Source: Escherichia phage PJNS034
Strand: one strand, 5' to 3'
Sequence record: PP391266.1
Length of the DNA stretch: 64,000 nucleotides
Part shown: positions 4,423-59,189 of the stretch, one piece after another
Position numbering within the stretch: the stretch's first letter is position 1
Layout: every line of letters begins with the position of its first letter
The notes under the pieces: generated by a model
Told to the model about the DNA's origin: nothing
The model's database searches: none
The model's input: the letters and a program-made list of their open reading frames with translations, nothing else
Translations under genes and position numbers: made by a program

Positions 4423-4500
4423 CTTGATGTAGCTCAGTTTGGTAGCAGCACTTGCTTTGGGAGCAAGGGGTCGAAGGTTCGAATCCTTCCATCAAGACCA
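4423..4500 (+). tRNA. tRNA-Pro (anticodon TGG), CCA encoded
   Basis: Hand-folded cloverleaf: acceptor cttgatg/catcaag, anticodon stem cttgc/gcaag with loop tttggga, T-arm gaagg-ttcgaat-ccttc; D-stem only 3 bp. Confidence 0.7.
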
Positions 4501-4501
4501 A

Positions 4502-4583
4502 GTGGGATTGGCTGAGTGGTCGAAAGCACCTGACTGTAAATCAGGCATATCACGCGGTGGTTCGAATCCATCATCCCACACCA
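4502..4583 (+). tRNA. tRNA-Tyr (anticodon GTA), CCA encoded
   Basis: Acceptor gtgggat/atcccac, anticodon stem cctga/tcagg with loop ctgtaaa, extended variable region, T-arm ggtgg-ttcgaat-ccatc. Confidence 0.65.
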
Positions 4584-4585
4584 AA

Positions 4586-4662
4586 GCGTCACTAACTCAA
4601 TTGGTTAGAGTAGCGGTCTTTTAAACCGCAGGTTCTGAGTTCGAGTCTCAGGTGGCGTACCA
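4586..4662 (+). tRNA. tRNA-Lys (anticodon TTT), CCA encoded
   Basis: Acceptor gcgtcac/gtggcgt (two G-U pairs), D-arm actc...gagt, anticodon stem gcggt/accgc with loop cttttaa, T-arm ctgag-ttcgagt-ctcag. Confidence 0.8.
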
Positions 4663-4664
4663 AA

Positions 4665-4754
4665 GGAAGTTAGGGCTTTGTGGAAAGCAATCGGTCTTGA
4701 AAACCGACCCACTGTAGCGATATGGTGATGGTTCGACTCCATTAGCTTCCTCCA
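4665..4754 (+). tRNA. tRNA-Ser (anticodon TGA), type II, CCA encoded
   Basis: Acceptor ggaagtt/agcttcc, anticodon stem tcggt/accga with loop cttgaaa, long variable arm, T-loop ttcgact. Confidence 0.75.
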
Positions 4755-4756
4755 AT

Positions 4757-4833
4757 TGTTTCGTAGCTCAGTTGGTAAGAGCGTTCGGCTGATAACCGAA
4801 AGGTCACAAGTTCGAGTCTTGTCGAAACAACCA
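4757..4833 (+). tRNA. tRNA-Ile (anticodon GAT), CCA encoded
   Basis: Canonical cloverleaf: acceptor tgtttcg/cgaaaca, D-arm gctc-agttggtaa-gagc, anticodon stem ttcgg/ccgaa with loop ctgataa, T-arm acaag-ttcgagt-cttgt. Confidence 0.85.
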
Positions 4834-4836
4834 AAT

Positions 4837-4925
4837 GACGGGTTGGCAGAGTTGGTTTATTGCAGCAGCTTGCTAAGTTGCCGAGTCGAAAGGCTCCGTG
4901 GGTTCGAATCCCACACCCGACGCCA
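4837..4925 (+). tRNA. tRNA-Ser (anticodon GCT), type II, CCA encoded
   Basis: Anticodon stem gcagc/gttgc with loop ttgctaa, 16-nt variable arm, T-arm gtggg-ttcgaat-cccac; acceptor has one A-A mismatch as read. Confidence 0.6.
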
Positions 4926-4926
4926 A

Positions 4927-5002
4927 GGACGATAAGCACATGTGGATGTGCGGCAGGCTGTTAACCTGATGGCAGTTGGTTCGAATCCAACATCGTCCGC
5001 CA
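4927..5002 (+). tRNA. tRNA-Asn (anticodon GTT), CCA encoded
   Basis: Acceptor ggacgat/atcgtcc, D-arm gcac...gtgc, anticodon loop ctgttaa, T-arm gttgg-ttcgaat-ccaac. Confidence 0.75.
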
Positions 5003-5004
5003 AT

Positions 5005-5079
5005 AGCGAGATAGTTCAGTGGTAGAATATCGGTTTCATACGCCGACCGTCGATGGTTCGATTCCATCTCTCGCTACCA
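5005..5079 (+). tRNA. tRNA with CAT anticodon (elongator Met or Ile2 type), CCA encoded
   Basis: Acceptor agcgaga/tctcgct fully paired at 1:72 (not initiator-like), anticodon stem tcggt/gccga with loop ttcatac, T-arm gatgg-ttcgatt-ccatc. Confidence 0.75.
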
Positions 5080-5095
5080 AACCTCTTTATCCGAT

Positions 5096-5167
5096 GGGAG
5101 TGTCCTTCTGGGAAGGATGTGGATTCCAACCCCACTAAGTAGAGTTCGATTCTTTACACTCCCGCCA
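5096..5167 (+). tRNA. tRNA-like, possibly tRNA-Gly (anticodon TCC), CCA encoded
   Basis: Acceptor gggagtg/cactccc and T-arm tagag-ttcgatt-cttta fold well; D-loop very short and one mismatch in the anticodon stem. Confidence 0.45.
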
Positions 5168-5174
5168 AATCCCT

Positions 5175-5251
5175 AGCCTTGTAGTGTAGTCTGGTTAGCA
5201 CACGTGACTTTGACTCACGGAGCTTAGGTTCGAATCCTGACAGGGCTGCCA
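5175..5251 (+). tRNA. tRNA-Gln (anticodon TTG), CCA encoded
   Basis: Acceptor agccttg/cagggct, D-arm gtgt...gcac, anticodon stem cgtga/tcacg with loop ctttgac, T-arm ttagg-ttcgaat-cctga. Confidence 0.8.
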
Positions 5252-6421: not shown

Positions 6422-7201
6422 ATGGCTAAGATTCCTTCTTCTCGTTCCGCTAAAGTTTCCAAAGTTCAGTACGAAGCAACCAAACCGGGTCTGTACCCTG
6501 CACGTCTGGTTCGTTTCACCGGTCTGGGCACTCAGCCTCAGCCAGAGTTCCAAGGTCAGGCTAAAGACCCTGCACCGAAAGTAGCTGTAATGTTTGAGTT
6601 GTATGACCCGCAGACAGCGAAACCTCTGGATGTTATCGGTGTGAACATCGAAACGGAAGAGAAGGTGGCACGTCCTTCTTGTGTGTTCCAAGACTACTTC
6701 CTGTTCCCAGGCGCTACTCGTGGTAAAGTCTTCGAGTTGACTCAGGCTCTGGATGCAAGCATGGAAAAAGTTCCAGATGATTTCGAATGGTTCCTGTCTC
6801 GTCTCGGTGCTCCAGTTCAGGTTCAGGTAGGCAACTACAAGAAGAAAGATGGTTCTGTTGGTGTTAAAGTTGTTTCCGTAACAGGTGTCAACTCTTTCGT
6901 TTCCAACGCAATGGAACCTGCTCGTTCTGAACTGGTTGGCTTTGACCCATACGATGATAACGTTGAGAAGTTCGAACGTGCTTATGCTCAGATGTTCCCA
7001 TTCCAGCGTACCATGCTGAAAGATGCACTGGATGCGAAACACATTCCTCTGGCTGGTACTGAACCAGTTAAGATTGACGATAACCCAGCTAACACTGAAA
7101 ACCGTCAGACTTCCAAGCCGGAAACTACTGTGACGCAAACTGGTTCTGCTCCAAGCGAACCGACTGGTAATTGGGAAGATGACGACGACCGTCCTTTCTA
7201 A
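6422..7201 (+). CDS. putative ssDNA-binding protein (acidic C-terminal tip)
   Basis: C-terminus NWEDDDDRPF resembles the acidic, aromatic-ended tip of bacterial SSB and T7 gp2.5; sits in the replication module and is followed by a strong terminator; body not recognised. Confidence 0.4.
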   Translation: MAKIPSSRSAKVSKVQYEATKPGLYPARLVRFTGLGTQPQPEFQGQAKDPAPKVAVMFELYDPQTAKPLDVIGVNIETEEKVARPSCVFQDYFLFPGATRGKVFELTQALDASMEKVPDDFEWFLSRLGAPVQVQVGNYKKKDGSVGVKVVSVTGVNSFVSNAMEPARSELVGFDPYDDNVEKFERAYAQMFPFQRTMLKDALDAKHIPLAGTEPVKIDDNPANTENRQTSKPETTVTQTGSAPSEPTGNWEDDDDRPF

Positions 7202-7210
7202 TTAAATAAT

Positions 7211-7239
7211 AACCTCGCCTTCGGGCGGGGTTTCTTTGT
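7211..7239 (+). terminator. Rho-independent terminator after 6422..7201
   Basis: Stem cctcgcc/ggcgggg with ttcg loop, followed by tttcttt. Confidence 0.6.
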
Positions 7240-7259
7240 CCCTAAATTCGAGGTAATAC

Positions 7260-7457
7260 ATGGCTGCTAAGCTGACAATTAAACGTACTGAAAAAGATAA
7301 CTTCCACATTCGCTTTGGTAACTTCGAAACTTACCTGACCTTTGTTGAACTGAGCGAAATCAGTGAACAAATTCGTGAAGTGGTAAGTGATGAAGAGTCT
7401 CGTCTGCTACAGGCAGAACTGAGCGGTTCTCTGGTTTGTGATGGTTGCACTATTTAA
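7260..7457 (+). CDS. hypothetical protein (65 aa)
   Basis: ORF-track ORF downstream of terminator, preceded by GAGG. Confidence 0.3.
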   Translation: MAAKLTIKRTEKDNFHIRFGNFETYLTFVELSEISEQIREVVSDEESRLLQAELSGSLVCDGCTI

Positions 7458-7460
7458 GGA

Positions 7461-7760
7461 ATGAAGATGGAAAAGTTAAAGATTGCAGGTTGTGGTAAAG
7501 TTCATCGTGAAGGTCGTTTCATTCACTTCGAAGTAAAACAGAAATCTCCCGGTTCTGCTTACCTGAAGGTAGTAGGCCAGATTCTGAATATCGTTGATGC
7601 TACTGGTCAGCGTGAGAACATCATCATTGACGTGAACAGTGACCACCCTGAGTTACATGCAATGCGAGCTAACTTGCATCGTATGCACCGTCATACTGGC
7701 ATCAAGGTAATGATTCGTCGTCATGGCGTACATGGCACTGTAACTGAGTTCGGGTGGTAA
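7461..7760 (+). CDS. hypothetical protein (99 aa)
   Basis: ORF-track ORF. Confidence 0.3.
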   Translation: MKMEKLKIAGCGKVHREGRFIHFEVKQKSPGSAYLKVVGQILNIVDATGQRENIIIDVNSDHPELHAMRANLHRMHRHTGIKVMIRRHGVHGTVTEFGW

Positions 7761-7761
7761 T

Positions 7762-7983
7762 ATGGAATTAGAGGTTGGTCGTCGCTATAAAGTGCTTTAC
7801 CGTAATTACAAAGGTGAATGGGCTTGGCGTAAGATTGAAGTCATTGGCTTCAACTTCAAGGTCAACACATTCCATAGCCCACAGGAGGCTCTATACTTAA
7901 CTGTGCTGGACGTAGAGCGTGAAGTAGTACGAGACTTCAAACCGTCTGACATTCGTGCTGTAACTCGCAAGGGAGCGAAATGA
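7762..7983 (+). CDS. hypothetical protein (73 aa)
   Basis: ORF-track ORF. Confidence 0.3.
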   Translation: MELEVGRRYKVLYRNYKGEWAWRKIEVIGFNFKVNTFHSPQEALYLTVLDVEREVVRDFKPSDIRAVTRKGAK

Positions 7984-8131
7984 CAGTATATGTCTTAATG
8001 GTTGAGAACCAAGTTGAAAGTGAGTGGGTGTTTGAGATGGACTCTATCTACTCCACTCACGAGAAAGCAACTGCGGCAGGGAAAGCCTTGCCAAGTGATT
8101 TTAATTTCTATGTCGAACCGATGGAGGTCGA

Positions 8132-8404
8132 ATGAGCGCATTAAATACTATGGTTGGTGGTTCACACTATCAGGCAGAAGGTGGCATTCAGCCGATTCAG
8201 TTCTACCACGCAAATCCACAGTTGAACTTTCAACAGTGTAATATGATTAAGTATGCTTTCCGTCACAAAGATAAGAACGGTTTGCAGGACTTACTCAAGG
8301 TTGTGCATTATGCCATGCTGGAGGCAGAGTTCCATTATCCGAAAGAAGATGTTGAGAAGTGGAAGTTACAGGTAGCGAATCTGATTGACCCACCTGCTTT
8401 TTGA
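8132..8404 (+). CDS. hypothetical protein (90 aa)
   Basis: ORF-track ORF. Confidence 0.3.
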   Translation: MSALNTMVGGSHYQAEGGIQPIQFYHANPQLNFQQCNMIKYAFRHKDKNGLQDLLKVVHYAMLEAEFHYPKEDVEKWKLQVANLIDPPAF

Positions 8405-8463
8405 TGTTACATTGGCTTTATTGATTCAGAACAATTTTAATTTCCATTCCAAGGTGGCAATAC

Positions 8464-8772
8464 ATGAACATGATTTACTCTAACGCACATTACGCAATCT
8501 ACTTCGTACCGAACGGTACTCCTGAGAAAGAACACGACTTTACCAAGCAGTTCACCATCGTGAATATGCACCTCGGTACTGTCGAAGCTCAGGTTGGTTC
8601 TTTCCCACATGCTGTACAGTATTGCGATGTGTTTGCTGCTGATTGGGAAGCACTGGTAATGAATGCAAAAGGCCAGTTCAATCCTGAGATTCAGGGCAAC
8701 GATAATGGTGCTGATAAAGCCGAAGCAAAAGCTGGTCTGAAACTGGCAACTGTGGATGGTGAAAACGTATAA
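8464..8772 (+). CDS. hypothetical protein (102 aa)
   Basis: ORF-track ORF; stop overlaps start of exonuclease gene. Confidence 0.3.
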   Translation: MNMIYSNAHYAIYFVPNGTPEKEHDFTKQFTIVNMHLGTVEAQVGSFPHAVQYCDVFAADWEALVMNAKGQFNPEIQGNDNGADKAEAKAGLKLATVDGENV

Positions 8773-9797
8773 TGAGCAAAATCCCCGTATGTAAGACAAC
8801 ACGACCTACGGTGGATTTAGCACTCATTGACGCAGACGTACTGCGTTACGAATTAGGGGCTGTGCAACTAGACCATCCTTATATCAAGGGTGAGAAGGTT
8901 CCAGCCCCTTCCTCGTTTGTTGAGGGCTTAGTTCAAGACCGTATTGAAACTATTCTGGACAGAACTGGTGCGAAAGACTTCTTATTGTTCCTCACAGGGC
9001 CGGGAAACTTCCGGTTTGATATTGCCAAACAGCAACCATATAAAGGCAACCGAGAAGATTTTGAAAAGCCTTTCCATTGGAAGACTGTTGACCGTTACCT
9101 CCGAACCGTTTATCCCTCCAAAATCCGTGAAGCATTCGGTAACGAGGCAGATGATGAATTGGGCATTACTCAATTACGTTCTGTCCTCGCAGGGGATAAG
9201 GATAACACCTGCATCGCTTCTCGTGACAAAGACCTGAGAACAGTGGAAGGATGGCATTACTCTTGGGCATGTGGTGAAGACCAGCCTGAGAAACCACTAC
9301 GTTACATCACTCAGCTTGAAGGTTATCGCTTCTTCTTCCAACAGATGCTTACTGGTGATAACACTGATAACATCATTGGTTGTGGTAAAAAGAAAGAAGT
9401 GATGTGGGGTGGTAAGCTCATGATGCGGCGTAAAGGCGTGGGCAAGAAAACTGCTGAGAAGTTACTTGCAGAGCTTGAGAACCAACAACAAATGTACGAT
9501 GTTGTTCGTGAACAGTATGTCGAAGTGTTTGAGGATGAAGCTGATACAGTGATGCTCGAACAAGCTCGGTTATTGTTTATTGGACAGACTGAGAAACAAC
9601 AATTTAAATGGCACTGGATTGAGGTGGTTGAATATGGAATTGGCTCCGAAGAAAGCGAAGTTGTGGAAGGAAAAGAACCTGAAGGGACGTTGGATGTTCC
9701 TGAGGAAAATCGACGGAGTGAGAGCACTTCGGAACCTAGACCCAACGATTCCAGCGAAGTATGTGAGCCGGAATGCGAAACCTCTGTACAATCTTGA
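8772..9797 (+). CDS. 5'-3' exonuclease (T7 gp6-like, FEN/RNase H-like)
   Basis: Segments ASRDKDLRTV and GDNTDNIIGCGKK match the CDKDF and GDITDGYSGIAGWG regions of T7 gene 6 exonuclease as recalled; last ~55 codons are low-complexity and overlap the ligase ORF. Confidence 0.7.
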   Translation: MSKIPVCKTTRPTVDLALIDADVLRYELGAVQLDHPYIKGEKVPAPSSFVEGLVQDRIETILDRTGAKDFLLFLTGPGNFRFDIAKQQPYKGNREDFEKPFHWKTVDRYLRTVYPSKIREAFGNEADDELGITQLRSVLAGDKDNTCIASRDKDLRTVEGWHYSWACGEDQPEKPLRYITQLEGYRFFFQQMLTGDNTDNIIGCGKKKEVMWGGKLMMRRKGVGKKTAEKLLAELENQQQMYDVVREQYVEVFEDEADTVMLEQARLLFIGQTEKQQFKWHWIEVVEYGIGSEESEVVEGKEPEGTLDVPEENRRSESTSEPRPNDSSEVCEPECETSVQS

Positions 9798-10332
9798 CCA
9801 CTTGGAGTTTGATGATGCTGAAATCTTTAATCAAAATTGGGAAACTTCCGTTTCAATGGTGCGTACTCATTGTGCGGCTCCTGTTCCTGCTGATTGCGTT
9901 TATCGTCTTGGTGATGGTCAGACCGATTCACGATTATACTTGTTCACGGTGCAAGACCCAACCGAAGAGTTCATTCGGAAGCATCTGGAAGAAGCTCTGG
10001 CGAAAGGTGATGAAGGCTTAATATTAAGGGAGGCCGATGTTGACGACCCGAAATGGCTCAAAGTCAAAAATAAAGAAACTCATGACGTGGTGGTTACGGG
10101 TTATCAGCCGGGCACCGGTAAGCATGAAGGACGGATGGGTGCTCTACTTACGACGAGAGGCAAAGTTGGTACAGGCTTCACAGACAGTGAACGAGACTAC
10201 TGGCAGCAACGCTGGGAAGAGGGTACTGTCGTAGGTGTTACGATTGAGGTGGAATGTATGGAGTTAACTTCCACTGGTAAATTCAGACACCCACGCTTTA
10301 TCCGTGAACGCCTTGATAAAGATGGCGAATAG
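9634..10332 (+). CDS. ATP-dependent DNA ligase (compact, T7 gp1.3-like)
   Basis: Adenylation motif I KIDGVR, EGLIL, WLKVK and C-terminal RHPRF-like motif; start placed at ATG 9634 (GAGG 10 nt upstream) rather than the TTG at 9580 given by the ORF track. Confidence 0.7.
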   Translation: MELAPKKAKLWKEKNLKGRWMFLRKIDGVRALRNLDPTIPAKYVSRNAKPLYNLDHLEFDDAEIFNQNWETSVSMVRTHCAAPVPADCVYRLGDGQTDSRLYLFTVQDPTEEFIRKHLEEALAKGDEGLILREADVDDPKWLKVKNKETHDVVVTGYQPGTGKHEGRMGALLTTRGKVGTGFTDSERDYWQQRWEEGTVVGVTIEVECMELTSTGKFRHPRFIRERLDKDGE

Positions 10333-10450: not shown

Positions 10451-11092
10451 ATGACAAAGCAGAAACCTCTGACGTTGCAGAACGCATCATGTCAGAACTC
10501 AAAAACTACATCAAAATGCGTGATGATGCACAACGTTCTCTGGAGAAAGCTAATGCGTAAGGTTTATATTGCAGGTCATATGTTAACTCGTGGTGCTCAG
10601 ATGCAACGTGCTGAGGAACGTGAGCTGGTATCTTCTTTGGGTCATCAACTCTACAACCCAATGGACAACAAGGAAATTAACGACAAGAAGCTCCACAAGG
10701 ACGATACAGGGCTGGCTGAACGAATCGTTAAGCAAGACACCGACGCTATTTTCTGGGCTGATACAGTGCTGATTGAGCCGCTTGCTGAGGCAAATGGCAC
10801 TCTGGTTGAGTTAGGACAGATTAAAGGTATGAAAGACCTCGCCAAGAAGCTGATGGAGTTACCTGCAACAAATGAGATTGAGTTCGCTGACCAAGCAATT
10901 GAATTGCTCAAACGAATCCTAGACCAGAAGGTTGTTGCTCACTTCGAAGATATCCGACGTGTCGAAGGTATCACCGAAACAGGCGACCGTCGCTCTCTTG
11001 GCATTAACCAGTATGTATATGGTACTGTCCTTGACCTGACAGATGGCAAAGGCTTCACTGAGTTTAAAGACTTGCCGGAGGCTCTTGCTTGA
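10451..11092 (+). CDS. nucleoside 2-deoxyribosyltransferase / Rcl(DNPH1)-like N-glycosidase family protein
   Basis: VYIAGHM near N-terminus and DTDAIFWADTVLIEPLAEANGTLVELGQ match the Rossmann-like core and Glu-containing active-site stretch of this family as recalled; true start probably the internal Met (codon 35). Confidence 0.55.
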   Translation: MTKQKPLTLQNASCQNSKTTSKCVMMHNVLWRKLMRKVYIAGHMLTRGAQMQRAEERELVSSLGHQLYNPMDNKEINDKKLHKDDTGLAERIVKQDTDAIFWADTVLIEPLAEANGTLVELGQIKGMKDLAKKLMELPATNEIEFADQAIELLKRILDQKVVAHFEDIRRVEGITETGDRRSLGINQYVYGTVLDLTDGKGFTEFKDLPEALA

Positions 11093-11751
11093 ACTGGAGA
11101 TTAATATGGTCAGTCTTTGCCGTGCTATCCATTCTGTTTGGGTGCGTTGTTTCAAAAGCAAGTTACGAAGTAATGGCGACGTCCCTAGTGGGCGTCATGT
11201 TCGTGATAGGGGTAGCCTTCAAGAAAGCAAGTGCGAATCTTTTGGGGGCTATACTGTGCGCTATGCTTGGGTTGATGAGCTGGCAAGCTGGATACTACAT
11301 GAACGCGATTATCAACATCTTCTTATTGCTACCACTCCAGTTATTAGCTTACGCCAATTGGACGACAGGGGTGTCGAAGCGAGAGCATCACAGGTACTTG
11401 GTGGAAACGGTCTGTCGCAAACGATTCTTGATTTACACATGTTGGCTAATTCCTCTCTTGGTAGCCGCATACTTCTCAGGCAGCCGTTTGTGGGTACACG
11501 ATGCTGTGACAGCCTCACTTGTGATTGTCGCAACACTTCTCCTCATGTTCAATACCAAAGAGCAATGGCAATTCTGGATTCCATACAATCTGGTAGAAGT
11601 CTTCATGTGGTTCATCGCAGCGAGTACAGCCCCTGAAATGCTTGCAATTATGTTCATGCGTATTGTATTCTTCATTAACAGTCTGATTGGCTATTACGAA
11701 TGGAGGAACGATGGCAATCCACGGACGCTACTTTCGACAGAAACCCGCTGA
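11089..11751 (+). CDS. PnuC-like nicotinamide riboside transporter (putative)
   Basis: 220-aa polytopic membrane protein; C-terminal LIGYYEWRN resembles the PnuC IYGWYEW signature; start overlaps stop of upstream Rcl-like gene. Confidence 0.45.
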   Translation: MNWRLIWSVFAVLSILFGCVVSKASYEVMATSLVGVMFVIGVAFKKASANLLGAILCAMLGLMSWQAGYYMNAIINIFLLLPLQLLAYANWTTGVSKREHHRYLVETVCRKRFLIYTCWLIPLLVAAYFSGSRLWVHDAVTASLVIVATLLLMFNTKEQWQFWIPYNLVEVFMWFIAASTAPEMLAIMFMRIVFFINSLIGYYEWRNDGNPRTLLSTETR

Positions 11752-17139: not shown

Positions 17140-17200
17140 TTAAAGTCCTCACTCGTTAGGTCGTTTTAGAGAGTTTATTGGGTAATTATACACCGTACTC

Positions 17201-17229
17201 TACAAATAAGAAAGCCCTCCGAAGAGGGC
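17201..17229 (-). terminator. Rho-independent terminator (minus strand) after 17236..18729
   Basis: Stem gccctc/gagggc, UUCG loop on the minus-sense RNA, followed by U-rich tract. Confidence 0.5.
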
Positions 17230-19055: not shown

Positions 19056-19116
19056 GTTGCCTCCTTCTTTTTAGTTATTATATCCCAACGGATTTACAAA
19101 CTCAAAATTATATGGT

Positions 19117-19152
19117 ATTTTAAGCTTCTAGCGTCCGAAGGGAAATAATAGG
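19117..19152. repeat. conserved ~36-bp intergenic element, copy 1 (tattttaagcttctagcgtccgaagggaaataatagg)
   Basis: Near-identical to 33004..33039; lies between minus-strand genes, preceded in transcript sense by a hairpin. Confidence 0.6.
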
Positions 19153-19196
19153 TAATAATATAGAAGGGAGAGATGTTACTCCCTCCCAACATACTA

Positions 19197-27375: not shown

Positions 27376-27430
27376 CTAATAAATCCTTTGGGTTTGTGTC
27401 AAGTTTTATTTTAGCACATTTGCTGTCGTT

Positions 27431-27458
27431 GTATACAAGAAAACCCTCCGAAGAGGGT
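27431..27458 (-). terminator. Rho-independent terminator (minus strand) after 27466..28350
   Basis: Stem aaccctc/gagggtt, UUCG loop on minus-sense RNA, then uuuucuugu. Confidence 0.5.
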
Positions 27459-32291: not shown

Positions 32292-32957
32292 TTACCAGTA
32301 AACGCGAGAACGAGTCTCACTATAGAATTGAGTATTCTTCTCAACCACCTGAGGAGAACCTGACATGTCATCGTCTTCGAGTTGTTGCTTAACTTCACCC
32401 ATGACGTTATCTGCACGTTGTTCCCAAATCGCAGCCTTCTCCATGTCTTCCGCGTAAACAGAACCATGACGTAACGCTGTGAACAAAAGCAGGTCAGGGG
32501 ATAGAGTCAGGAGGGGAGTTACTTGGTTGTTATAGCTCAACTCTTCTGGGTCACAGAAATAGTGACAATATACTTCCAACTTCCCTTCATCACCCGGAGC
32601 ACTATCCATGTCCTTGAAGAAGTGGTACTCGTTACCAACACGAGAGAAATAGAACTGCTCATGCAGAACATCATCTGATTGGTGACGAATCAATTCTCGG
32701 TGTGAGGTATGACGACCGACACGTTTGTCGTTTGTATAAATCTCGATAAGCTGGACGAGGTTAAATGGAACCTCTGCACGACCATTCTTAATAGTCAGTT
32801 GCACTACCGATTCATAAACAGGAAGTTTCAGAACACGATAGATTTCCTTCTCAGCGAAGTTGATGAACGTTGGGATTCGGTTGATTGTGTCAGGGTCATC
32901 TCGGTTGAGCCAAGCCTTAACTTCTTCAACCAGTTCCGCATAGTTAGTTGCTGCCAT
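32292..32957 (-). CDS. virion-module protein (221 aa)
   Basis: ORF-track ORF; the conserved 36-bp element lies ~46 nt upstream. Confidence 0.35.
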   Translation of the reverse strand: MAATNYAELVEEVKAWLNRDDPDTINRIPTFINFAEKEIYRVLKLPVYESVVQLTIKNGRAEVPFNLVQLIEIYTNDKRVGRHTSHRELIRHQSDDVLHEQFYFSRVGNEYHFFKDMDSAPGDEGKLEVYCHYFCDPEELSYNNQVTPLLTLSPDLLLFTALRHGSVYAEDMEKAAIWEQRADNVMGEVKQQLEDDDMSGSPQVVEKNTQFYSETRSRVYW

Positions 32958-33003
32958 GTTTCACCTCGTTGAAATAACACTTCCCTTCTTCAACTTTTCA
33001 TGC

Positions 33004-33039
33004 TATTTTAAGCTTCTAGCGTCCGAAGGGAATAATAGG
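33004..33039. repeat. conserved ~36-bp intergenic element, copy 2
   Basis: tattttaagcttctagcgtccgaagggaataatagg; differs from copy 1 by one A. Confidence 0.6.
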
Positions 33040-33214
33040 GTATGTATTACCAACCCATAGTTTTCTTCACCTTCTCCCACACTTCATCATCGTATGGGGT
33101 CTTGGTGTTCTTCACTAACACATCAATTGATGCTTTAGCGATAGCTTGAGTCAGTTGCAAACCAAGAGCCTTCATAGCCCAAGTCAGAACGATTGGCATA
33201 ATGCCTCCTACAAT

Positions 33215-41204: not shown

Positions 41205-42072
41205 TCATGCCACCTAATAATGGGGTTAGTTGAAAGATACACTGTAAGATGGAACCATTCATGCCAGTTCATCTACATGCCATGTCATAAGTATACACTG
41301 ATAAGAGGCTATCATGCCACCTCATACATGCCAGTCCATACTTCTGTGGGGATATAGGTAAGAGATGCTACATCTTACACTACTTATACCTATTATTTCC
41401 CTTCGGAATATAATGTTTAGGGTACAGGAAGAAGTGCCATATGACAAGACTTATTTACCAATTGAATTACAAATTCAGTGAATTTATAAGTGTGAGATAA
41501 CAAAGTGTGGATATTGCTCACTTTTTAACCAGAAACGTAAATTTCACTTGAGCGGTATGTGGCATATCAGCTTTAGCATAATGTTCAAAAAGGGGGAACG
41601 GGTTCCGCTCATGTTCCGGCGTGTGAATGAGGCGTGTAGACTACCACTAGCCCCTACCCTGAGTCAATACCCTCACTGGTCTGATGAGTGTGACTGCTCA
41701 AGTAGTAACCGTGTGATGCCGTGTGATGAGTACCCATCGTGCATAGTTATTCATGATAATTTATTTTTGGATAGCCTGAATAAATAATAGCCAGTGACCC
41801 GTTAGAATCTGCGTGCGTGTCTGATACTGCCTGAGTTATACCTCCATAACGCCAACGTTTAAACGGTGTATTGATAACGGGTAACAAGCCAGCGACAAGT
41901 GAATAAATATTCCAAGAGATAGCATATCTAATCAATCTATCTTCTCTTTATTCCTTTTACAGTGTAATTCTTATTTGTTTATAAGTAATAATTCTCCTCG
42001 ACCTATTGACAATTACCGTCGAGTAAATTACGCGTGTGTTTCATTACGTCTTAAAGAAATGATTTGTTTGTT

Positions 42073-42100
42073 TTGCTATTGACTTTTTAACTCATTCGTT
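42073..42100 (+). promoter_or_regulatory. sigma70-type promoter (TTGACT-16-TAATAT)
   Basis: Hexamers read directly from sequence. Confidence 0.5.
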
Positions 42101-42161
42101 TAATATAGCTCCCCGTTGAAACGCAGAACATCGCGGAGTAAACAAGTTAATCACTAAGTGG

Positions 42162-42190: not shown

Positions 42191-42371
42191 GCTTACCGAT
42201 TCAAACGCTCTTTAAAAATGTGGTCTGTCTTTAGGTGGTGTTTAACATCATTACTACAAGGCGCTTAGTTAGTTATCTGGTTTTGATTCCTGTTTCATTA
42301 GTGATTCAGGCGGATTGATAAAGCATCTTCAATAAGTCTTTAACAGTTCGATACTTCGAAGAAATTAACGA

Positions 42372-42399
42372 TTGACAGCGTACTAGATTCCTGTAAGAT
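42372..42399 (+). promoter_or_regulatory. sigma70-type promoter (TTGACA-16-TAAGAT)
   Basis: Consensus -35; followed by AACGCTCTTTAA leader motif. Confidence 0.5.
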
Positions 42400-42517: not shown

Positions 42518-42545
42518 TTGACAGCGTGAAATGATTCGGTATAAT
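42518..42545 (+). promoter_or_regulatory. strong sigma70-type promoter (TTGACA-16-TATAAT)
   Basis: Both hexamers perfect consensus. Confidence 0.65.
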
Positions 42546-43681: not shown

Positions 43682-44002
43682 ATGGAATTAATCCGCATGA
43701 CTCCTTTACAGATTAGACGTAACGCCAAACGTAAGGCGGCAGCAATGAAACAAGTTGTAACTCTCAAGTCTAAGCGTGAGAAAACTTTACTCATTACTCC
43801 ACCTGACGATGTTAAAAAGATTGTGGATAACTTTAAGTTCCCATCTGGTAAAACGTTTCGGGCTGTTCCCACTCGCAACAAAGGCACTGATGCGAAAGGT
43901 GCTAGCAGTGCTGATAAGATTGCTTGCCGTGGTAAACAGAAGTGTAAAGGGTCTAGCGTTAGGCCGTCTGGTTGGTATAGCAAGTCACAATTAGCGGGGT
44001 AA
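43682..44002 (+). CDS. basic protein (106 aa), possible nucleic-acid binding
   Basis: Lys/Arg-rich ORF. Confidence 0.35.
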   Translation: MELIRMTPLQIRRNAKRKAAAMKQVVTLKSKREKTLLITPPDDVKKIVDNFKFPSGKTFRAVPTRNKGTDAKGASSADKIACRGKQKCKGSSVRPSGWYSKSQLAG

Positions 44003-45494: not shown

Positions 45495-45527
45495 TCCGGC
45501 TATTGACAACCTTCGGATGTGACGGTA

Positions 45528-45615
45528 AGCTAAGCCCAAGCGTCCGAAGGGAATATTACTAAGAAATAATATAAGAAAGATTATATCTAACTATATTACT
45601 TCTTATTAATATTCC
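45528..45615. repeat. AT-rich palindromic element sharing TAAGAAATAATATAAG core with 4075..4130
   Basis: Inverted arms gggaatattactaagaa / ttcttattaatattccc; same 16-mer as upstream of 4141. Confidence 0.5.
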
Positions 45616-45717
45616 CTTACTTATTGGAGGAGTTATGTTATCTCTTATCAAACTTCATCAAGATAAACTAATCATTGCACTGGTTGTGATTCTGTCCTGC
45701 TTGAACATGGATGGTGT

Positions 45718-46077
45718 GTGATGCAGGGTGTTTATCTTAAACCTCGCATTCAAGACCACATTAAAGCGACTCTGGACTTTCACTCTGCGGGTGGCAAGAT
45801 TAACGAGGTGATGGTGTTGGAGTTGTGTGATGTGATGCTGACCTTCGGCATATGTCTGCGAAATCATCCACCAGAAGCTCAAGGACAGGCTCTAAAGGGT
45901 TGCGCTAGGGAAATGCTCAAGCGGATTAAATATCCTGCCCTGCGTATTCTGGTGCGTAAAATGCTAGTGCCTTTCGCTTTACCTAAAGGTGTGTTTAACG
46001 AGTTGGAACACATCATGGAATCCTGCATCAACGGGATGAATGAAACAACTCACCAAACGATTGAACAAAAGGATTAA
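45718..46077 (+). CDS. hypothetical protein (119 aa)
   Basis: ORF-track ORF. Confidence 0.3.
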   Translation: MMQGVYLKPRIQDHIKATLDFHSAGGKINEVMVLELCDVMLTFGICLRNHPPEAQGQALKGCAREMLKRIKYPALRILVRKMLVPFALPKGVFNELEHIMESCINGMNETTHQTIEQKD

Positions 46078-52645: not shown

Positions 52646-53455
52646 ATGACGATTCGCCTGATTACTCTTGGTGCTGACCCTGAAACTATTGTTGCTCGCA
52701 ACGGTGTTCCAACTCACGCTATTGGTCTTATCGGCGGTACTAAGGAAGAACCACGTAAGATTATCCGTGGTGGTCGTGAAGTTGGTGCGGTGCAGGAAGA
52801 TAATGTCCTGTATGAGTTCAACATCATGCCACACGATACTCGTCAGGGATTCATTGACAACATTCAGCAGATGTTGGAAGTGGGTCGTGAGATTCTGGGT
52901 GATGGTTACGAAATCACTAATAAGACTTCTCACATCTTCTCTGATGAAGACATGGCTCATTTCCCTGACTCAGCGTTTATCTTCGGTTGTGAACCGGATT
53001 TCTTCGCTGGTAATGGTGAGATGAATCCGAAGCCTGCTGCACCGTGGCCGGGTCTGCGTACCGCAGGTGGTCATGTTCACTTCGGGTTCGATGAGCGTGT
53101 AGTTCGTGATGATGAGAATGTTCGTTCTCTGATTCAACTGTGCGATATGTATATGGCGTTGCCGTCAATGCTTCTGGACACTGACGACCTGCGTAAAGAA
53201 CTGTATGGTAAGGCCGGTGCATTCCGTCCGAAAGCATATGGTGCTGAATATCGTACACTGTCAGGTTTCTGGATTCATAATCCTGAAAATACTGGCTTCG
53301 TGTTTGACCAAGCGCAGAAAGCGTATGATGCGTTGGCAACTGGTCTGGGTCGTGAGATGTTGGCACGTTTCCCATACGAACTGGTTGTCGATATCATCAA
53401 CAGCAATGACCGTGGACGTGCTGAACGTGCCCTGAAAGTTATGCAGGTTGCATAA
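52646..53455 (+). CDS. amidoligase-like protein, divergent (269 aa)
   Basis: GADPETIV and TAGGHVHFGF parallel the GLELELE and STHVHLD segments of the downstream amidoligase-like ORF; preceded by conserved leader. Confidence 0.4.
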   Translation: MTIRLITLGADPETIVARNGVPTHAIGLIGGTKEEPRKIIRGGREVGAVQEDNVLYEFNIMPHDTRQGFIDNIQQMLEVGREILGDGYEITNKTSHIFSDEDMAHFPDSAFIFGCEPDFFAGNGEMNPKPAAPWPGLRTAGGHVHFGFDERVVRDDENVRSLIQLCDMYMALPSMLLDTDDLRKELYGKAGAFRPKAYGAEYRTLSGFWIHNPENTGFVFDQAQKAYDALATGLGREMLARFPYELVVDIINSNDRGRAERALKVMQVA

Positions 53456-53637
53456 TGGAAGAAGGTCTGCTGATTAGCTGGGTTGAATCTCCAGCGAACC
53501 GTAAGACCAAGACTCATACCCTCTTCTTCGAAAGCCTGGACGAGGGTTATGAGTTCATGGCCTCTAAAAGTTGTGTAATTCAAGTACAACGCATTCCACT
53601 GGTGAGAAAGAATGGCGAAACTGGTAACGGTAAATAA
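53455..53637 (+). CDS. hypothetical protein (60 aa)
   Basis: ORF-track ORF, start overlaps previous stop. Confidence 0.25.
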   Translation: MEEGLLISWVESPANRKTKTHTLFFESLDEGYEFMASKSCVIQVQRIPLVRKNGETGNGK

Positions 53638-53803
53638 CGCAGATAAAACTGTAACTCGTCGTGTCTTTATGGACAACGAAGAGGGTATCATGTGGGCAGT
53701 TGACCAAGCCCGCACAGCACTGTCAGTCGTGACTGATGATGTGGAAGTGGTCGAGGCTTCCAGCCGTAAAGGTTGGGAAGGTCATATCGCATGTGATTGC
53801 TAA
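53612..53803 (+). CDS. hypothetical protein (63 aa)
   Basis: ORF-track ORF. Confidence 0.25.
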   Translation: MAKLVTVNNADKTVTRRVFMDNEEGIMWAVDQARTALSVVTDDVEVVEASSRKGWEGHIACDC

Positions 53804-53827
53804 TTTAAACTGAACGAGAGAACTAAA

Positions 53828-54436
53828 ATGTCAATCAATATGTCAAGTGGTGATTTACGTCTGTATTGGGGTGGGTGTTATGCACCTGTTGCATGGGATG
53901 CAGCAGATAGTGGCGTAGCAACACTGGTAATTCACGACGTTCGTGTGATAAATCCAATGTCACGTGACTACACCGAAGCACGAGTTCAAGGTGAACTATT
54001 CTTCATTCGTAATGGAGAAGAGGCTCGTGGTAATTTTGAAGGTCGTATGTCTGACCTCCTCGGTGATGGGTTCACCACTCCTCAACGCAATATCGGTTAT
54101 ATCCGTGTTCACGGTCAACCGTATTGGATTACCTTCAAACGTCGTCGTACAAATCGTAAAGGCATCACCAATGACCGTCTGGCTGTGTATGTAGCTGGGC
54201 ATCGTGGTGAAGCAGGTTTGAACTTCGGTAGTGATGTGTTGTGTCGTCTGTATGCAACCTTTGATGGTCGTATCTCTGATGATTTCTGTATTCATCAGAA
54301 CATGATTCATTATAAAGGTGTGGTTGTCGGACGTTATGAGCGTCACAATCGTATTGTATTAGCTGAACGTTTTGCGTATCTTAGCTGGTCGCTGGAACGT
54401 ATCGGTGGTTACGACGTAACGGTGGAGGTTGAGTAA
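53828..54436 (+). CDS. hypothetical protein (202 aa) inside ligase cluster
   Basis: Preceded by conserved TTAAACTGAACGAG leader; stop overlaps amidoligase start. Confidence 0.4.
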   Translation: MSINMSSGDLRLYWGGCYAPVAWDAADSGVATLVIHDVRVINPMSRDYTEARVQGELFFIRNGEEARGNFEGRMSDLLGDGFTTPQRNIGYIRVHGQPYWITFKRRRTNRKGITNDRLAVYVAGHRGEAGLNFGSDVLCRLYATFDGRISDDFCIHQNMIHYKGVVVGRYERHNRIVLAERFAYLSWSLERIGGYDVTVEVE

Positions 54437-55260
54437 TGATTATTGCTGACATTTTAGGGCATGGTCGTGGGTCGGATGTTGTTGATACGCATCCGTTGAT
54501 TGTTGGTCGAGGCCGTGTAGGACTCGAATTAGAACTGGAGAATATGCCAAATGCTCGACAAGCTGCTGGTTGGACAGTTACTGGTGACGGTTCTCTGCGT
54601 AATAGCGGCGTGGAATATGTACTCCGTGGTGCTCAGGGAGGTATGGAGTTATTTAATTCGATACTTTCTCTGGAAGAAGCACTCATGGCACATCAATGTG
54701 ATGCTAACCTTCGCTGCTCTACTCACGTTCACCTTGATATACGTCGGCTCACTGTGGCTCAACTCAAGCGTTTACTTCTGGCTTATACAGTCTTTGAGCC
54801 ATTAATCTTTGAGTTGTCCGGTGCGCATCGTCGTACTAACAACTTCTGTCCGTCGTTTAGTTTCGCTCAGCAACAAATTCGTAAGCTGAGTAACAACTGG
54901 CATCATGATGGTGAACGATTCCTTGCTCGTATTGTGGAAGGTCGTGACCGCCAATCCAGTGATAAGTATTCAGCACTGAATCTGGTTCCAATCTTCACTC
55001 AGGGTTCTGTAGAGTTCCGTGGTGCAGAAGCGAAGCCAAGTGCAGGTAAGATGATTCGTCTGGCTAACCGTATTCTAAGTCTGTATGACTTAGCGGTTAA
55101 CTCTGATATGAATCAGTCTGATGCTGAGTTCATTAACTCACTGGCGAACCTTGATGTTCAACAGGCATTGATGGGTACGATTCCTCGTGACTTCGAACTC
55201 AGCGAAGAACTGGTGAATGAAGGACGTGTCTTAGCGTTCGATATTATCTCTCTGGGGTGA
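54436..55260 (+). CDS. amidoligase (Amidoligase_2 / carboxylate-amine ligase-like) protein
   Basis: VGLELELE...DGSLRNSGVEYV...STHVHLD resembles the putative amidoligase family (glutamine-synthetase-like fold) as recalled. Confidence 0.5.
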   Translation: MIIADILGHGRGSDVVDTHPLIVGRGRVGLELELENMPNARQAAGWTVTGDGSLRNSGVEYVLRGAQGGMELFNSILSLEEALMAHQCDANLRCSTHVHLDIRRLTVAQLKRLLLAYTVFEPLIFELSGAHRRTNNFCPSFSFAQQQIRKLSNNWHHDGERFLARIVEGRDRQSSDKYSALNLVPIFTQGSVEFRGAEAKPSAGKMIRLANRILSLYDLAVNSDMNQSDAEFINSLANLDVQQALMGTIPRDFELSEELVNEGRVLAFDIISLG

Positions 55261-55261
55261 C

Positions 55262-55477
55262 ATGAGCTGGAACGAACGAGAGTATCGTAAACCAAAGTTG
55301 GGCACTGTATGTGTCCACTTCGAACCTTCGTATAAGTCAACCTTTGGAAGTACGAAGAAGTTCCCTAACGCATCGTTCTACTTGAGTACGAACGGTGTAA
55401 TCATCATCCGTGATATGGATGGTGACAACATCTGTGCATACCCTGAAGGTGTGTGGCTGAATGTTGAAATGAAGTGA
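55262..55477 (+). CDS. hypothetical protein (71 aa)
   Basis: ORF-track ORF; followed by a clean terminator hairpin. Confidence 0.3.
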   Translation: MSWNEREYRKPKLGTVCVHFEPSYKSTFGSTKKFPNASFYLSTNGVIIIRDMDGDNICAYPEGVWLNVEMK

Positions 55478-55485
55478 TTAACTCA

Positions 55486-55508
55486 AGCCCTTCTTCGGGA
55501 GGGTTTTA
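55486..55508 (+). terminator. Rho-independent terminator (cassette copy 3)
   Basis: 8-bp stem agcccttc/ggagggtt with ttcg loop, then tttta; preceded by AACTCAAG. Confidence 0.55.
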
Positions 55509-55563
55509 TGGTAATCATTACCACAAACTATTGAAACTAACTATTGAACTTGAGGAAAGTATT

Positions 55564-57156
55564 ATGTGCGGAATCGTTGGAATTATGCGTGGCGTTATGA
55601 CTGAAGGTATGGTGGACATGTTTGAACAACTGCTGTATGCAGATGTGTTCCGTGGCCCGCACTCCACTGGCGTCTATCGTGTTAATAAAGATGGTCAATC
55701 AGGGTTGTATAAGGATGCAGTACCTGCGTCTTTATATCTTGGCTCGAAAGGCTGGGATGATTTACGTGGGAATCTGAATGGAACTGCTGGTCATCAGGCA
55801 CTGTCTCAAGTTTATGTTGGTCATAACCGTTGGGCAACTGTAGGTGCAGTTAACGCTGTGAACTCACATCCATTCAAGTGCGGTAACATCACGATGGTAC
55901 ACAATGGTACTGTTGCGAAGTGGCGTTTGAATGACCACCTGAAGTATGACGTTGATAGTCATGCGGTGTGTGCGATGTTGGATTCACATGGTCTGGCTGA
56001 AACTCTGAAAGTTCTGGATGGTAAGTTTACTCTGGTGTGGCATGACGCATCTGATAACACCATGAACTTTATCCGTAATGCAGAACGTCCTCTGCACATG
56101 GTTGAGTTCACTGATGGTGGTTGGGCGTTTGCATCAGAAGGTGAGATGTTAACGTGGATTAATGGTCGTCGTAAGACCCCGTTTGGTATTAAACGTGCTT
56201 TCGAACTGCCAGTTGGCTTCCATCATAAATTCCAGTTATCCGCGAGCAAAGTAGAGCTTGCGGAGGTCGTTAAGTACGAACTCCCAAAGTTCACCAGCTA
56301 CGCCAGCAACAGCACGTATTATCCAAACCGAAGCTCAGTCGCAAGCAGCAGCGCAAGCTCAACAAACTCAGAAAGCGCAACCGCTAGACGTGTGCGTCTG
56401 ATGAAAGAGTGGGGCATTGACGTTGGAGACCGCAAAGATGTAGAGAACATGATTGTGTCTCTGGATAACATCGCGTTCACAGCGTACTCAACCAATGCAG
56501 CATCAGGTCGTATTGATGCAGACGCATGGGGTTACGATGAAGCTGTTGATGCCTGTGATGCTGGTCATATGGAAATTGACTGTAAGCGTGGTGGTAAAAC
56601 TGAAGATGTTCAGGTAACAGTTTACGGTGTTGATACTGTTAAGTGGAAAGACAACTACTCTCAGGGCGACCGTCTGTACGGTAAGATTGACAGTGTGTTT
56701 GAATCCACTGAGCATGGCAAGACTCGTCTTCGTATCACTTTGAAACCACTGACTCTGTGTACTGAGTTGGCTGATGGCGTTGAAGCCTTTAATGAGAAAG
56801 TGTTCCCGCTCCTCATTAAGAAAGAGGCCGAAAAGGTTGATGCCGACAAAAGTAAATCAGATGTTGCAGGAAGCACTGGAAGCGCAGGAACTGCAACTGG
56901 TCAGGGAACTCAGTTATCGGTTGTAGTGGATAACACTGCAAAAAAGCCGGAAGGTACGGACTCATCAAGCGGCTCGCCGAACTTGTTCAACATGTCCGCA
57001 ATTCCAATGAGTCTTAAAGACTTGCGTGAAGACAAGCTGAGTTGTGCTTGGTGCGGAAATGCAATCCACGAACATAACTACGAAATGTCTGATATGTTCT
57101 TTAAATCTCACATCTGCCCAGATTGTGCCAAGGAGTTACCGGGTTATGGCGACTGA
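55564..57156 (+). CDS. class II (Ntn-type) glutamine amidotransferase-like protein with C-terminal zinc ribbon
   Basis: Begins MCGIVGI (Cys directly after Met, hallmark of N-terminal nucleophile amidotransferases); Ser-rich linker; C-terminal CAWCG...CPDC; start moved to internal ATG with GAGG upstream. Confidence 0.7.
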   Translation: MCGIVGIMRGVMTEGMVDMFEQLLYADVFRGPHSTGVYRVNKDGQSGLYKDAVPASLYLGSKGWDDLRGNLNGTAGHQALSQVYVGHNRWATVGAVNAVNSHPFKCGNITMVHNGTVAKWRLNDHLKYDVDSHAVCAMLDSHGLAETLKVLDGKFTLVWHDASDNTMNFIRNAERPLHMVEFTDGGWAFASEGEMLTWINGRRKTPFGIKRAFELPVGFHHKFQLSASKVELAEVVKYELPKFTSYASNSTYYPNRSSVASSSASSTNSESATARRVRLMKEWGIDVGDRKDVENMIVSLDNIAFTAYSTNAASGRIDADAWGYDEAVDACDAGHMEIDCKRGGKTEDVQVTVYGVDTVKWKDNYSQGDRLYGKIDSVFESTEHGKTRLRITLKPLTLCTELADGVEAFNEKVFPLLIKKEAEKVDADKSKSDVAGSTGSAGTATGQGTQLSVVVDNTAKKPEGTDSSSGSPNLFNMSAIPMSLKDLREDKLSCAWCGNAIHEHNYEMSDMFFKSHICPDCAKELPGYGD

Positions 57157-57439
57157 TAAAATTGTAATTCGTATGCCGAAAGACGACATTGAATGTGAGC
57201 GGAAATATCCGTTCACTTACTTCATGAATGCAGCGCTGCGTGGTATGCAGCGTCGCTACTCTGAACAAGCGTCGGCAAAGTTTGGTAGTGAAGTTGAGAT
57301 TCTATTCCCAACTGCATTATCAAAAATGATTCATGACCACATGGTCACTCTGTATCAACAGGAAGGATTCGAACTCGCTGAAGAAGATTTCGAAGACTCC
57401 GAACAATACCGCAAATATCTGAAACTAATTAAGGGCTAA
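57146..57439 (+). CDS. hypothetical protein (97 aa)
   Basis: ATG overlapping the amidotransferase stop; ORF-track frame. Confidence 0.35.
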   Translation: MATDKIVIRMPKDDIECERKYPFTYFMNAALRGMQRRYSEQASAKFGSEVEILFPTALSKMIHDHMVTLYQQEGFELAEEDFEDSEQYRKYLKLIKG

Positions 57440-57444
57440 AACAA

Positions 57445-58938: not shown

Positions 58939-58967
58939 TTGCTTTAGGGTATTCTTCGGAGTACCCT

Positions 58968-59189
58968 ATGTCGATTGAACCGAACGAGGAATATATGAAA
59001 GTATGGGTAGTTATGTTCCAAGAGTATGACCTAGCCGAAGTGCTGGAAATCTACTCGAAGGAAGAAGATGCTATAGCACATCGTCAGGCTGAAATTGATA
59101 AGAGCTTGTCATACGCTAAGAAGTGGAATGTCAAACCACACCCTGCGCTCGAACAGTTTTATACAATTCACGAAAAAGAGGTAAAGTAA
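58968..59189 (+). CDS. hypothetical protein (73 aa)
   Basis: ATG lies at the 3' edge of a hairpin whose loop carries GGAG. Confidence 0.3.
   Translation: MSIEPNEEYMKVWVVMFQEYDLAEVLEIYSKEEDAIAHRQAEIDKSLSYAKKWNVKPHPALEQFYTIHEKEVK

Follow-up and report, generated by a model that had tools for sequence, protein, structure and literature searches.

The stretch of DNA analysed here (64,000 nt, hereafter called the window) represents nearly the entire genome of Escherichia phage PJNS034, which by sequence comparison is a distant relative of phages phiEco32 and 7-11. Its structural genes are on the minus strand, from position 41204 down to 12307, and they code for the terminase, portal, scaffold, capsid, adaptor, tail and ejection proteins and for a 1610-aa virion protein. 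These structural proteins are ~30% identical to their phiEco32 and 7-11 counterparts. The early, middle and replication genes are on the plus strand, starting at ~42 kb and wrapping round to 12172. In GenBank, the only close relatives are Pantoea phage TacPo2 and a 5.5-kb fragment of Serratia phage KSP100. TacPo2 is collinear with the window, with ~64–90% nucleotide identity depending on the segment, and all 95 of its genes are annotated as 'hypothetical'. The PJNS034/TacPo2/KSP100 group, whose structural module is shared with phages phiEco32 and SU10, is an almost unannotated lineage. Further relatives were obtained as assembled contigs (L008 to L015 and L021 to L023) via protein database look-ups and Logan contigs.

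The genome also harbours ten tRNA genes and a cluster of genes coding for amidoligase, COOH-NH2 ligase, glutamine amidotransferase, RimK-like and gamma-glutamyl cyclotransferase proteins (52646–59596, 10451–11751 and 4423–5251, all on the plus strand). Together with nucleoside 2-deoxyribosyltransferase and PnuC genes that are also encoded in the window, this cluster suggests a possible role in DNA hypermodification or nucleotide salvage.

A repeat that reads tattttaagcttctagcgtccgaaggga(a)ataatagg in both copies precedes two of the minus-strand genes. Copy A is at 19117–19153 (37 nt, GGGAAATAAT) and copy B at 33004–33039 (36 nt, GGGAATAAT). The sequence-only reading had placed both copies correctly and described them as one base different; the difference is a 1-nt indel, i.e. 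one extra A, and not a substitution. It had also set them 45–60 nt upstream of gene starts, in good agreement with the distances of 61 nt for A (start codon at 19055) and 46 nt for B (start codon at 32957) that we measured from the gene-proximal ends of the copies. No match to the 36-mer with up to three mismatches was obtained in 100 dinucleotide-preserving shuffles. The two-copy repeat is not a chance occurrence.

The 9-mer CCCTTCGGA occurs four times in the window vs 0.18 expected, at 19134–19142 (−, site A), 33022–33030 (−, site B), 41399–41407 (+, site C) and 45543–45551 (−, site D). Sites C and D correspond to the partial copies previously reported near 41388, where the core is indeed followed by TATAAT (41409–41414), and near 45530. 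The four sites, at 19.1, 33.0, 41.4 and 45.5 kb, form a family characterized by an invariant box, TCCGAAGGG, followed by AA(A)TAATAGG, in which the number of A residues before TAATAGG varies by one. At site A, the core (19134–19152, +) consists of TCCGAAGGG and AAATAATAGG and would cover positions ~+5 to +23 of a predicted antisense transcript. The cores of sites B (33022–33039, +) and D (45543–45559, +) are composed of TCCGAAGGG followed by AATAATAGG and AATATTAC, respectively, and that of site C (41389–41407, −) reads CCTATTATTTCCCTTCGGA on the plus strand and TCCGAAGGGAAATAATAGG on the minus strand. Directly before the site A element in gene sense, a terminator hairpin of the upstream late gene (19163–19187, −) is retained in L012 and L014 with a different stem sequence. 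We searched for more copies with pattern scans of IMG/VR and one protein-based scan, which returned only unrelated chance matches. Similarly, the 23 matches to the core in a scan of JGI metagenomes were all unrelated and due to chance.

The element was also sought in related phages. All four sites are found at syntenic positions in TacPo2, and site B is present in KSP100 as well. Site A occurs with an identical core in 6/6 genomes together with the downstream 107-/108-aa and 497-aa genes, including in L014, although the 497-aa protein of the latter is just 53% identical. In a 1.5-kb six-way alignment, site A represents the conservation maximum. The mean pairwise identities of the 40 element columns are 0.98 and 0.95, as compared with ~0.5 to 0.95 in coding windows and 0.38–0.58 in the noncoding flank just upstream of the element. 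Site C is kept in TacPo2, L008, L009, L021 and L023, and site D in TacPo2, L021, L022 and L023. The box TCCGAAGGG shows no variation in any instance, i.e. at four sites in up to six genomes each, and in 11 genomes or contigs overall. At the level of sequence comparison, these data show strong purifying selection on the four-site family. The element had been put forward as a candidate regulator binding site, and this proposal holds in the form of a conserved, non-coding element of transcription control with a −10-like hexamer and what is probably a site for a regulator.

Site B has a distinct history. The site and the whole ~90-nt intergenic segment around it (32957–33047) are missing in L008, L009 and L010, in which the adaptor gene starts ~10 nt after the preceding 50-aa gene (junctions at 9991–10001, 9273–9284 and 9991–10001, respectively). 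The L008 adaptor protein is 81% identical to that of the window. As the segment is missing from these relatives, site B is a lineage-specific insertion of ~80–90 nt, whose first 52 nt are a copy of the A element. Furthermore, site A of the window has the B-type spacer CGCTAGAAGCT (AGAAG), whereas the five other genomes have CGCTATAGGCT (ATAGG), which suggests a B-to-A gene conversion in the window. Such a conversion would account for the close likeness of the two window copies. In the more distant relatives L010 and L020, both the intergenic gaps and the motif are absent, so that these two added no information on the element.

Read on the strand on which the box is TCCGAAGGG (core TCCGAAGGGAA(A)TAATAGG), each of the four sites has a sigma70-type promoter motif 10–12 nt upstream. 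A −10 hexamer of the form TAnnnT (T−12, A−11 and T−7) is present at 4/4 sites in all genomes compared. The site A promoter (19093–19121, +) is made up of a −35 TTTACA (19093–19098), a 17-bp spacer with TGG at 19113–19115 and a −10 TATTTT (19116–19121), with the core 12 nt further on. Site B (33001–33009, +) has an extended −10, TGc followed by TATTTT (33004–33009), also 12 nt before the core, and it is devoid of a −35, with TTCCCT (3/6) at that position. Site C (41419–41447, −) has a −35 TTGTCA (41447–41442), 17 bp and a −10 TACCCT (41424–41419), with the core 10–12 nt on. At site D (45503–45531, +), a −35 TTGACA (45503–45508) is followed after 17 bp by a −10 TAAGCT (45526–45531), and the core is 10–11 nt on. 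Thus, the −35 hexamers match the consensus at 5/6 positions for A, which has in addition the TGn extension, at 5/6 in three variants for C, and at 6/6 for D, with 16–17 bp spacing. As a background, 33 of the 1851 TAnnnT hexamers of the window (1.8%) have a −35 of at least 5/6 at 16–18 bp, as opposed to 3/4 sites. The −10 hexamers themselves are weak, with 3–4/6 matches.

These promoter elements are maintained in the relatives. The site A promoter is retained in all six genomes, including L014 with its diverged flank, and the sole variable base of the site A block is the free 'n' of TGn (G or C). The extended −10 of site B is identical in TacPo2 and KSP100. At site C, the −35 is TTGTCA, TGGACA or TTGATA at 16–17 bp spacing, amid many substitutions and indels. 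At site D, the −35 is invariant and the −10 is TAAGCT, TATGCT or TACAAT among five genomes. In L023, the −10 of site D is improved to TACAAT, the core linker is rewritten and the gene-sense TAnnnT is lost. This drift with retention of promoter quality, for the −35 of C and the −10 of D, is the pattern expected from selection on a promoter, to judge from the aligned sequences.

The polarity signals favour an orientation of A and B antisense to the structural genes, with C directed towards the first late gene, which begins with the start codon at 41204, and D into the plus-strand middle genes. The box would then be at about +5 to +25 of the predicted transcript. For the antisense transcripts predicted from A and B, we found no evident product and no terminator. 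The sequence-only reading had proposed instead a −10-only late promoter in gene sense. This polarity is not supported: in gene sense, no site has a −35 match above 3/6 or a TGn extension, site D of L023 lacks TAnnnT, and no phage sigma factor or polymerase was detected by the searches described below. A separate sigma70-like promoter in gene sense was identified at site A (19077–19105, −), with TTGAGT (19105–19100), a 17-bp spacer and TATAAT (19082–19077), upstream of the 107-/108-aa gene. It is kept in 5/6 relatives and absent from L014, where the antisense −35 survives. Nevertheless, the −10 heptamers at A to D in the window are of the form TAnnnTA (TATTTTA, TAGGGTA, TAAGCTA), the D heptamer of L023 being asymmetric. 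Because TAnnnTA is pseudo-symmetric, with TAnnnT on both strands at a 1-bp offset, gene-sense initiation is possible at A and B. Altogether, the repeat resembles the region around the start of ordinary promoters of the host type that have an invariant 9-base control box in common, as far as sequence features can tell.

The box TCCGAAGGG is a pseudo-dyad, TCC-N4-GGA. The symmetry is longer at site C, where L009 reads CTATTATTCC-CTTC-GGAACAATAG, with 9/10 matching arm positions. The pattern TCCSWWSGGA occurs six times vs 0.74 expected, and 5/6 of the occurrences are within the A to D sites. Site A has a second, degenerate box (19083–19092, +, TCCCAACGGA) that abuts the antisense −35 and is located in the spacer of the gene-sense promoter; in L015, this second box is a perfect TCCGAAGGG. 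At site D, an upstream inverted box (45509–45517, +, ACCTTCGGA) is found in the promoter spacer, outside the predicted transcript. In L023, it is a perfect CCCTTCGGA, which generates a 9-bp inverted repeat bracketing the −10 and the predicted start. As the upstream copy at D would not be transcribed, recognition on DNA is favoured.

As for RNA structure, the one feature common to all box copies is a 3-bp mini-hairpin. The folding z-scores of the element, between 0 and −1.8, are unremarkable, and significant RNA structure downstream was found only at site D, with no consensus structure after site C. In Rfam searches, only the tRNAs were detected and nothing at the element. An intrinsic terminator or a known RNA family was discarded on the basis of these z-scores and the absence of an Rfam match. 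By inspection, sigma54, sigma32, sigmaE, FliA, RcsAB-box and boxA readings of the element were similarly rejected for wrong spacing or consensus. Many intrinsic terminators of this genome have a CCCTCTTCGGAGGG-type stem, as exemplified by those at 17195–17224, 27424–27453, 7218–7245 and 58940–58970, which have a UUCG loop and are conserved in TacPo2. The box CCCTTCGGA resembles the core of such a UUCG-loop terminator hairpin minus its stem.

The leader of site D is predicted to form a long, AT-rich hairpin (45546–45618, +, GAAGGGAATATTA ... TAATATTCCCTT), whose 5' arm includes the box (z = −4.66). It is located upstream of a 28-codon ORF (45635–45721). Over its 30 pairs, we found two compensatory changes and three one-sided changes, the latter all leading to G-U pairs. 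One-sided changes restricted to G-U are a signature of plus-strand RNA, and they thus provide independent support for plus-strand transcription through the D box. By this substitution pattern, the D leader is likely a transcribed plus-strand RNA. The 28-codon ORF encodes a hydrophobic peptide (MLSLIKLHQDKLIIALVVILSCLNMDGV). The layout of leader and ORF resembles that of small membrane-toxin or holin-like genes with structured leaders, by analogy. No candidate for a box-binding protein was found, and for the 108-aa protein whose gene lies upstream of site D, the model built with AlphaFold was unusable (pLDDT of 48).

The relatives of this phage have their own transcription systems. PhiEco32 uses the sigma factor gp36 on tAATGTAtA promoters located 6–8 bp upstream of the start, and 7-11 uses gp47 on bipartite GTAAtg-16-aCTA promoters (PMC8948821, PMC4331800). 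No gp36 or gp47 homologues were found in the window by tblastn and phmmer. Likewise, neither an RNA polymerase nor a phage sigma factor or gp55-like protein was revealed by Pfam, PHROGs and NCBIfam searches with ~50 ORFs and by a PDB sequence search. The sigma factors of phiEco32 and 7-11 are encoded in the interval flanked by the phi32_40 homologue and the gene of the 5'-3' exonuclease. The syntenic slot of the window (6422–9797, +) contains just six small ORFs of 51–102 aa and no sigma factor. A gp36-dependent promoter was rejected, as the element is devoid of tAATGTAtA and no gp36-type sigma factor is encoded. So was a gp47-dependent late promoter: the element does not contain the bipartite motif, no gp47 homologue is encoded, and only the position of B matches that of P12. 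For a T4-type late promoter, the element has TTAAAATA and not TATAAATA, and no gp55/gp33 family match was found among ~50 proteins. We also compared the element with the Q-cassette architecture of lambdoid phages (PR'-QBE-SDPE-terminator; 10.1101/651190). This candidate was discarded as well, with no Q-family Pfam match and, by inspection, no conserved TAnnnT at +1 to +25.

Position provides the main remaining argument for gene-sense polarity. PhiEco32 has an exact AATGTATA site just before its adaptor gene, phi32_13 (L005 9102), and another just before the giant gene gp26 (L005 26015), and the sigma-dependent promoter P12 of 7-11 (L007 11790–11815) is just upstream of its adaptor gene. Site B is also upstream of the adaptor gene, where both phages thus have gene-sense late-type motifs.

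Two other sequences of the window resemble tAATGTAtA, namely GTGTATAAT (17185–17193, −), upstream of the gene of the 1610-aa protein, a giant-gene position as in phiEco32, and GTGTATACT (41290–41298, −), upstream of the first late gene. They are located after terminators or before late genes, with conservation of both in TacPo2. They represent better candidates for sense-strand late promoters than the repeat. Five CATGCCA sequences (TGGCATG in late-gene sense) are clustered within 130 nt upstream of the first late gene (41206–41333, +), with GGCAT repeats at the same place in L009 and L010; these could be binding sites for a regulator or the terminase. Upstream of site C, a terminator-like hairpin (41596–41610, −, GAGCGGAACCCGTTC, then CCCCTTTTTG) would keep leftward transcription out of the late control region. 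The adjoining block TTAACCAGAAACGTAAATTTCACTTGAGCGGTATGTGGCATA is highly conserved in four relatives.

The early region harbours features reminiscent of antitermination. Three strong sigma70 promoters (42079–42106, 42372–42399 and 42518–42545, all +) are each followed at ~100–200 nt by a boxA-like CGCTCTTTAA(A/C)AA sequence (at 42208, 42416 and 42753; three vs 0.15 expected, all on the plus strand). By analogy, the early leader looks like those of rrn- or lambda-type Nus-factor antitermination. The second early gene (43682–44002, +) codes for a very basic protein of 106 aa with no Pfam or PDB match. Its C-terminus, IACRGKQKCKGSSV, matches ITCSGRQKIKGKSI, which we take to be the lambda N sequence, at 8/14 positions (pairwise E = 6e-4). 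This protein may be an N-like antiterminator. As regards a lambda-type nut site, there is no boxA beside the box, the stem is just 3 bp, and the likeness to N is a 14-residue match to a presumed sequence.

Our best explanation, which we hold tentatively and rate a little short of an even chance, is that the repeat belongs to a small family of sigma70 promoter cassettes with a common box, of which it forms the promoter-proximal part. Each cassette would be composed of a −35 and/or TGn, a weak TAnnnT(A) −10, the box TCCGAAGGG 10–12 nt later and AA(A)TAATAGG as an AT-rich tail. The cassettes would have the box in common as a cis-regulatory site, most probably an operator bound by a putative phage DNA-binding protein at ~+5 to +14, just downstream of the start point. 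A single box-binding protein would place all four promoters under one temporal control. More speculatively, occupancy of the box could switch A and B from antisense initiation to initiation in gene sense, if the protein blocked the antisense direction and favoured the sense one. The same switch logic at C would turn transcription off the late operon, and we thus do not regard the switch model as established. Similarly, a single regulator that blocked all four promoters would also block C, which faces the late operon. The weak −10s, the lack of a −35 at B and the location of B at the position of the relatives' gene-sense late promoters also argue against our best explanation. A bolder proposal, rather improbable in our view, is that this lineage has lost, or never had, the sigma factor of its relatives and may time its genes via an undescribed factor recognising TCCGAAGGG. 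The box would be either a direction-switching DNA operator or a boxB-like 5' RNA tag, perhaps in conjunction with the boxA leaders and the early protein that resembles N.

The first of the rival explanations is gene-sense polarity. A and B would be late promoters for a host polymerase modified by the phage, or for a phage sigma factor or activator that has escaped recognition, with TAAAATA as the −10 and CCCTTCGGA, at about −32 to −24, as an upstream recognition element, similar to the T4 MotA box with TAnnnT. All four window sites fit CCCTTCGGA-N(9-11)-TAnnnTA, and the spacing between box and hexamer is constant at A and B (11 nt) despite upstream indels. A restart promoter is expected after the terminator that precedes A in all relatives, and in L014 the element is the sole conserved block between terminator and gene. 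B resembles an inserted promoter-plus-leader module, at the position of the phiEco32 and 7-11 motifs described above. Nevertheless, the promoter signals are poor on that strand as detailed above, C and D would point away from or against genes, the searches detected no homologue of RNA polymerase, of a sigma factor or of gp55/gp33 or MotA/AsiA, and the close relatives L008 to L010 manage without B. We consider this reading unlikely. The box might instead function in the RNA, which we regard as less likely still. The 5'-proximal mini-hairpin UCC-GAAG-GGA would be a boxB-like protein-binding tag on four transcripts, able to recruit e.g. the small basic early protein (43682–44002) for antitermination or control of RNA stability. 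The mini-hairpin can form in every copy, the D box is part of a significant, G-U-tolerant leader hairpin, boxA-like CGCTCTTTAACAA sequences follow the early promoters, the basic early protein has a local match to the C-terminus of what we presume to be lambda N, and hairpins or terminators are found after each cassette. However, a 3-bp stem with unremarkable z-scores is marginal, boxA is missing beside the box, the second D box is upstream of the start and hence outside the RNA, no downstream structure is shared at C and no Rfam family matches. In addition, antitermination of the A and B antisense transcripts would be harmful.

The last two rival explanations dispense with a specific regulator. 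The cassettes could be transcription-primed replication origins, in which the promoter is followed by a G-cluster, GAAGGG, that would seed an R-loop, and by an AT-rich unwinding region, as we infer by likening them to T4 oriF/oriG or to the T7 primary origin. AT-rich DNA follows every box, over ~70 nt at D, and C and D diverge around the control region. The invariance of all nine bases, however, argues for sequence-specific recognition rather than base composition, and the AT-rich tails are short at A, B and C, making origins very improbable. Finally, the repeat might have arisen by a recent neutral duplication or by gene conversion and be functionless in itself, given that B is a lineage-specific copy of A and that the B-type spacer in site A of the window suggests gene conversion. 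This is hardly credible: the core is invariant where the proteins encoded by the flanking sequences are just 53–88% identical, and it is the conservation maximum of the region.

By its sequence features, the finding overturns nothing known. Phage promoter/operator cassettes are a familiar class, of which this member is new, in a barely annotated lineage. Three of its features are of moderate interest: the invariance of the box, the conservation of predicted antisense promoters within the late cluster, and the lack of the sigma factor that the relatives use. A family of four promoters with one invariant box provides a testable handle on the timing of transcription with the host polymerase, and predicted antisense promoters are flagged as conserved inside the late gene cluster. 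The promoters, terminators and leaders described here represent annotation targets for the lineage. Moreover, promoter polarity inferred from gene proximity can mislead when the −10 is symmetric.

We compared the cassettes with known systems. The T4 late promoter is TATAAATA, used with gp55/gp33, and the T4 middle promoters combine a MotA box at −30 with TAnnnT. Like those, the element has TTAAAATA at its gene-sense end, and its conserved box precedes TAnnnT at a fixed distance, but no gp55, gp33, MotA or AsiA homologues were detected and the comparative data favour the other strand. T4-type phages also have mobile promoter/stem-loop cassettes (PeSL). Similarly, a module of terminator hairpin and promoter was duplicated here to a new intergenic position, B being the copy of A. 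In contrast with PeSL, there are only two copies, the sequences are unrelated, and mobility is inferred from a single insertion event. As for the gp36 and gp47 promoters of phiEco32 and 7-11, they and the present family alike were found by pairwise comparisons of intergenic regions, and both are low-copy, highly conserved intergenic motifs of the late cluster. They differ in that the sequences are unrelated, no homologue of either factor is encoded, and the best-supported polarity is the opposite one. In this phage, the closer likeness to tAATGTAtA is that of GTGTATAAT and GTGTATACT, not of the repeat.

The bidirectional promoters of E. coli share a pseudo-symmetric −10; their opposed starts are typically separated by 18 bp, and their direction is set by flanking elements or regulators (Warman et al.; PMC12825309). 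The TAnnnTA heptamers described here similarly predict opposed starts ~18 bp apart. Unlike in bidirectional promoters, a −35 or TGn is present in one direction only, and the D heptamer of L023 is asymmetric. Some sigma70 promoters of E. coli have a promoter-proximal operator, such as lac O1, which is centred at +11, and dispersed operator sets are known from phage P1, with its C1 operators. The cassettes differ from these in their strict core of just 9–10 bp, in the orientation of 2/4 predicted promoters antisense to late genes and in the putative status of the operator. They share with them the −35/−10 geometry, a short pseudo-dyad after the start and dispersed promoters with one common site, and, at promoter D, the presence of two inverted box copies on either side of the promoter.
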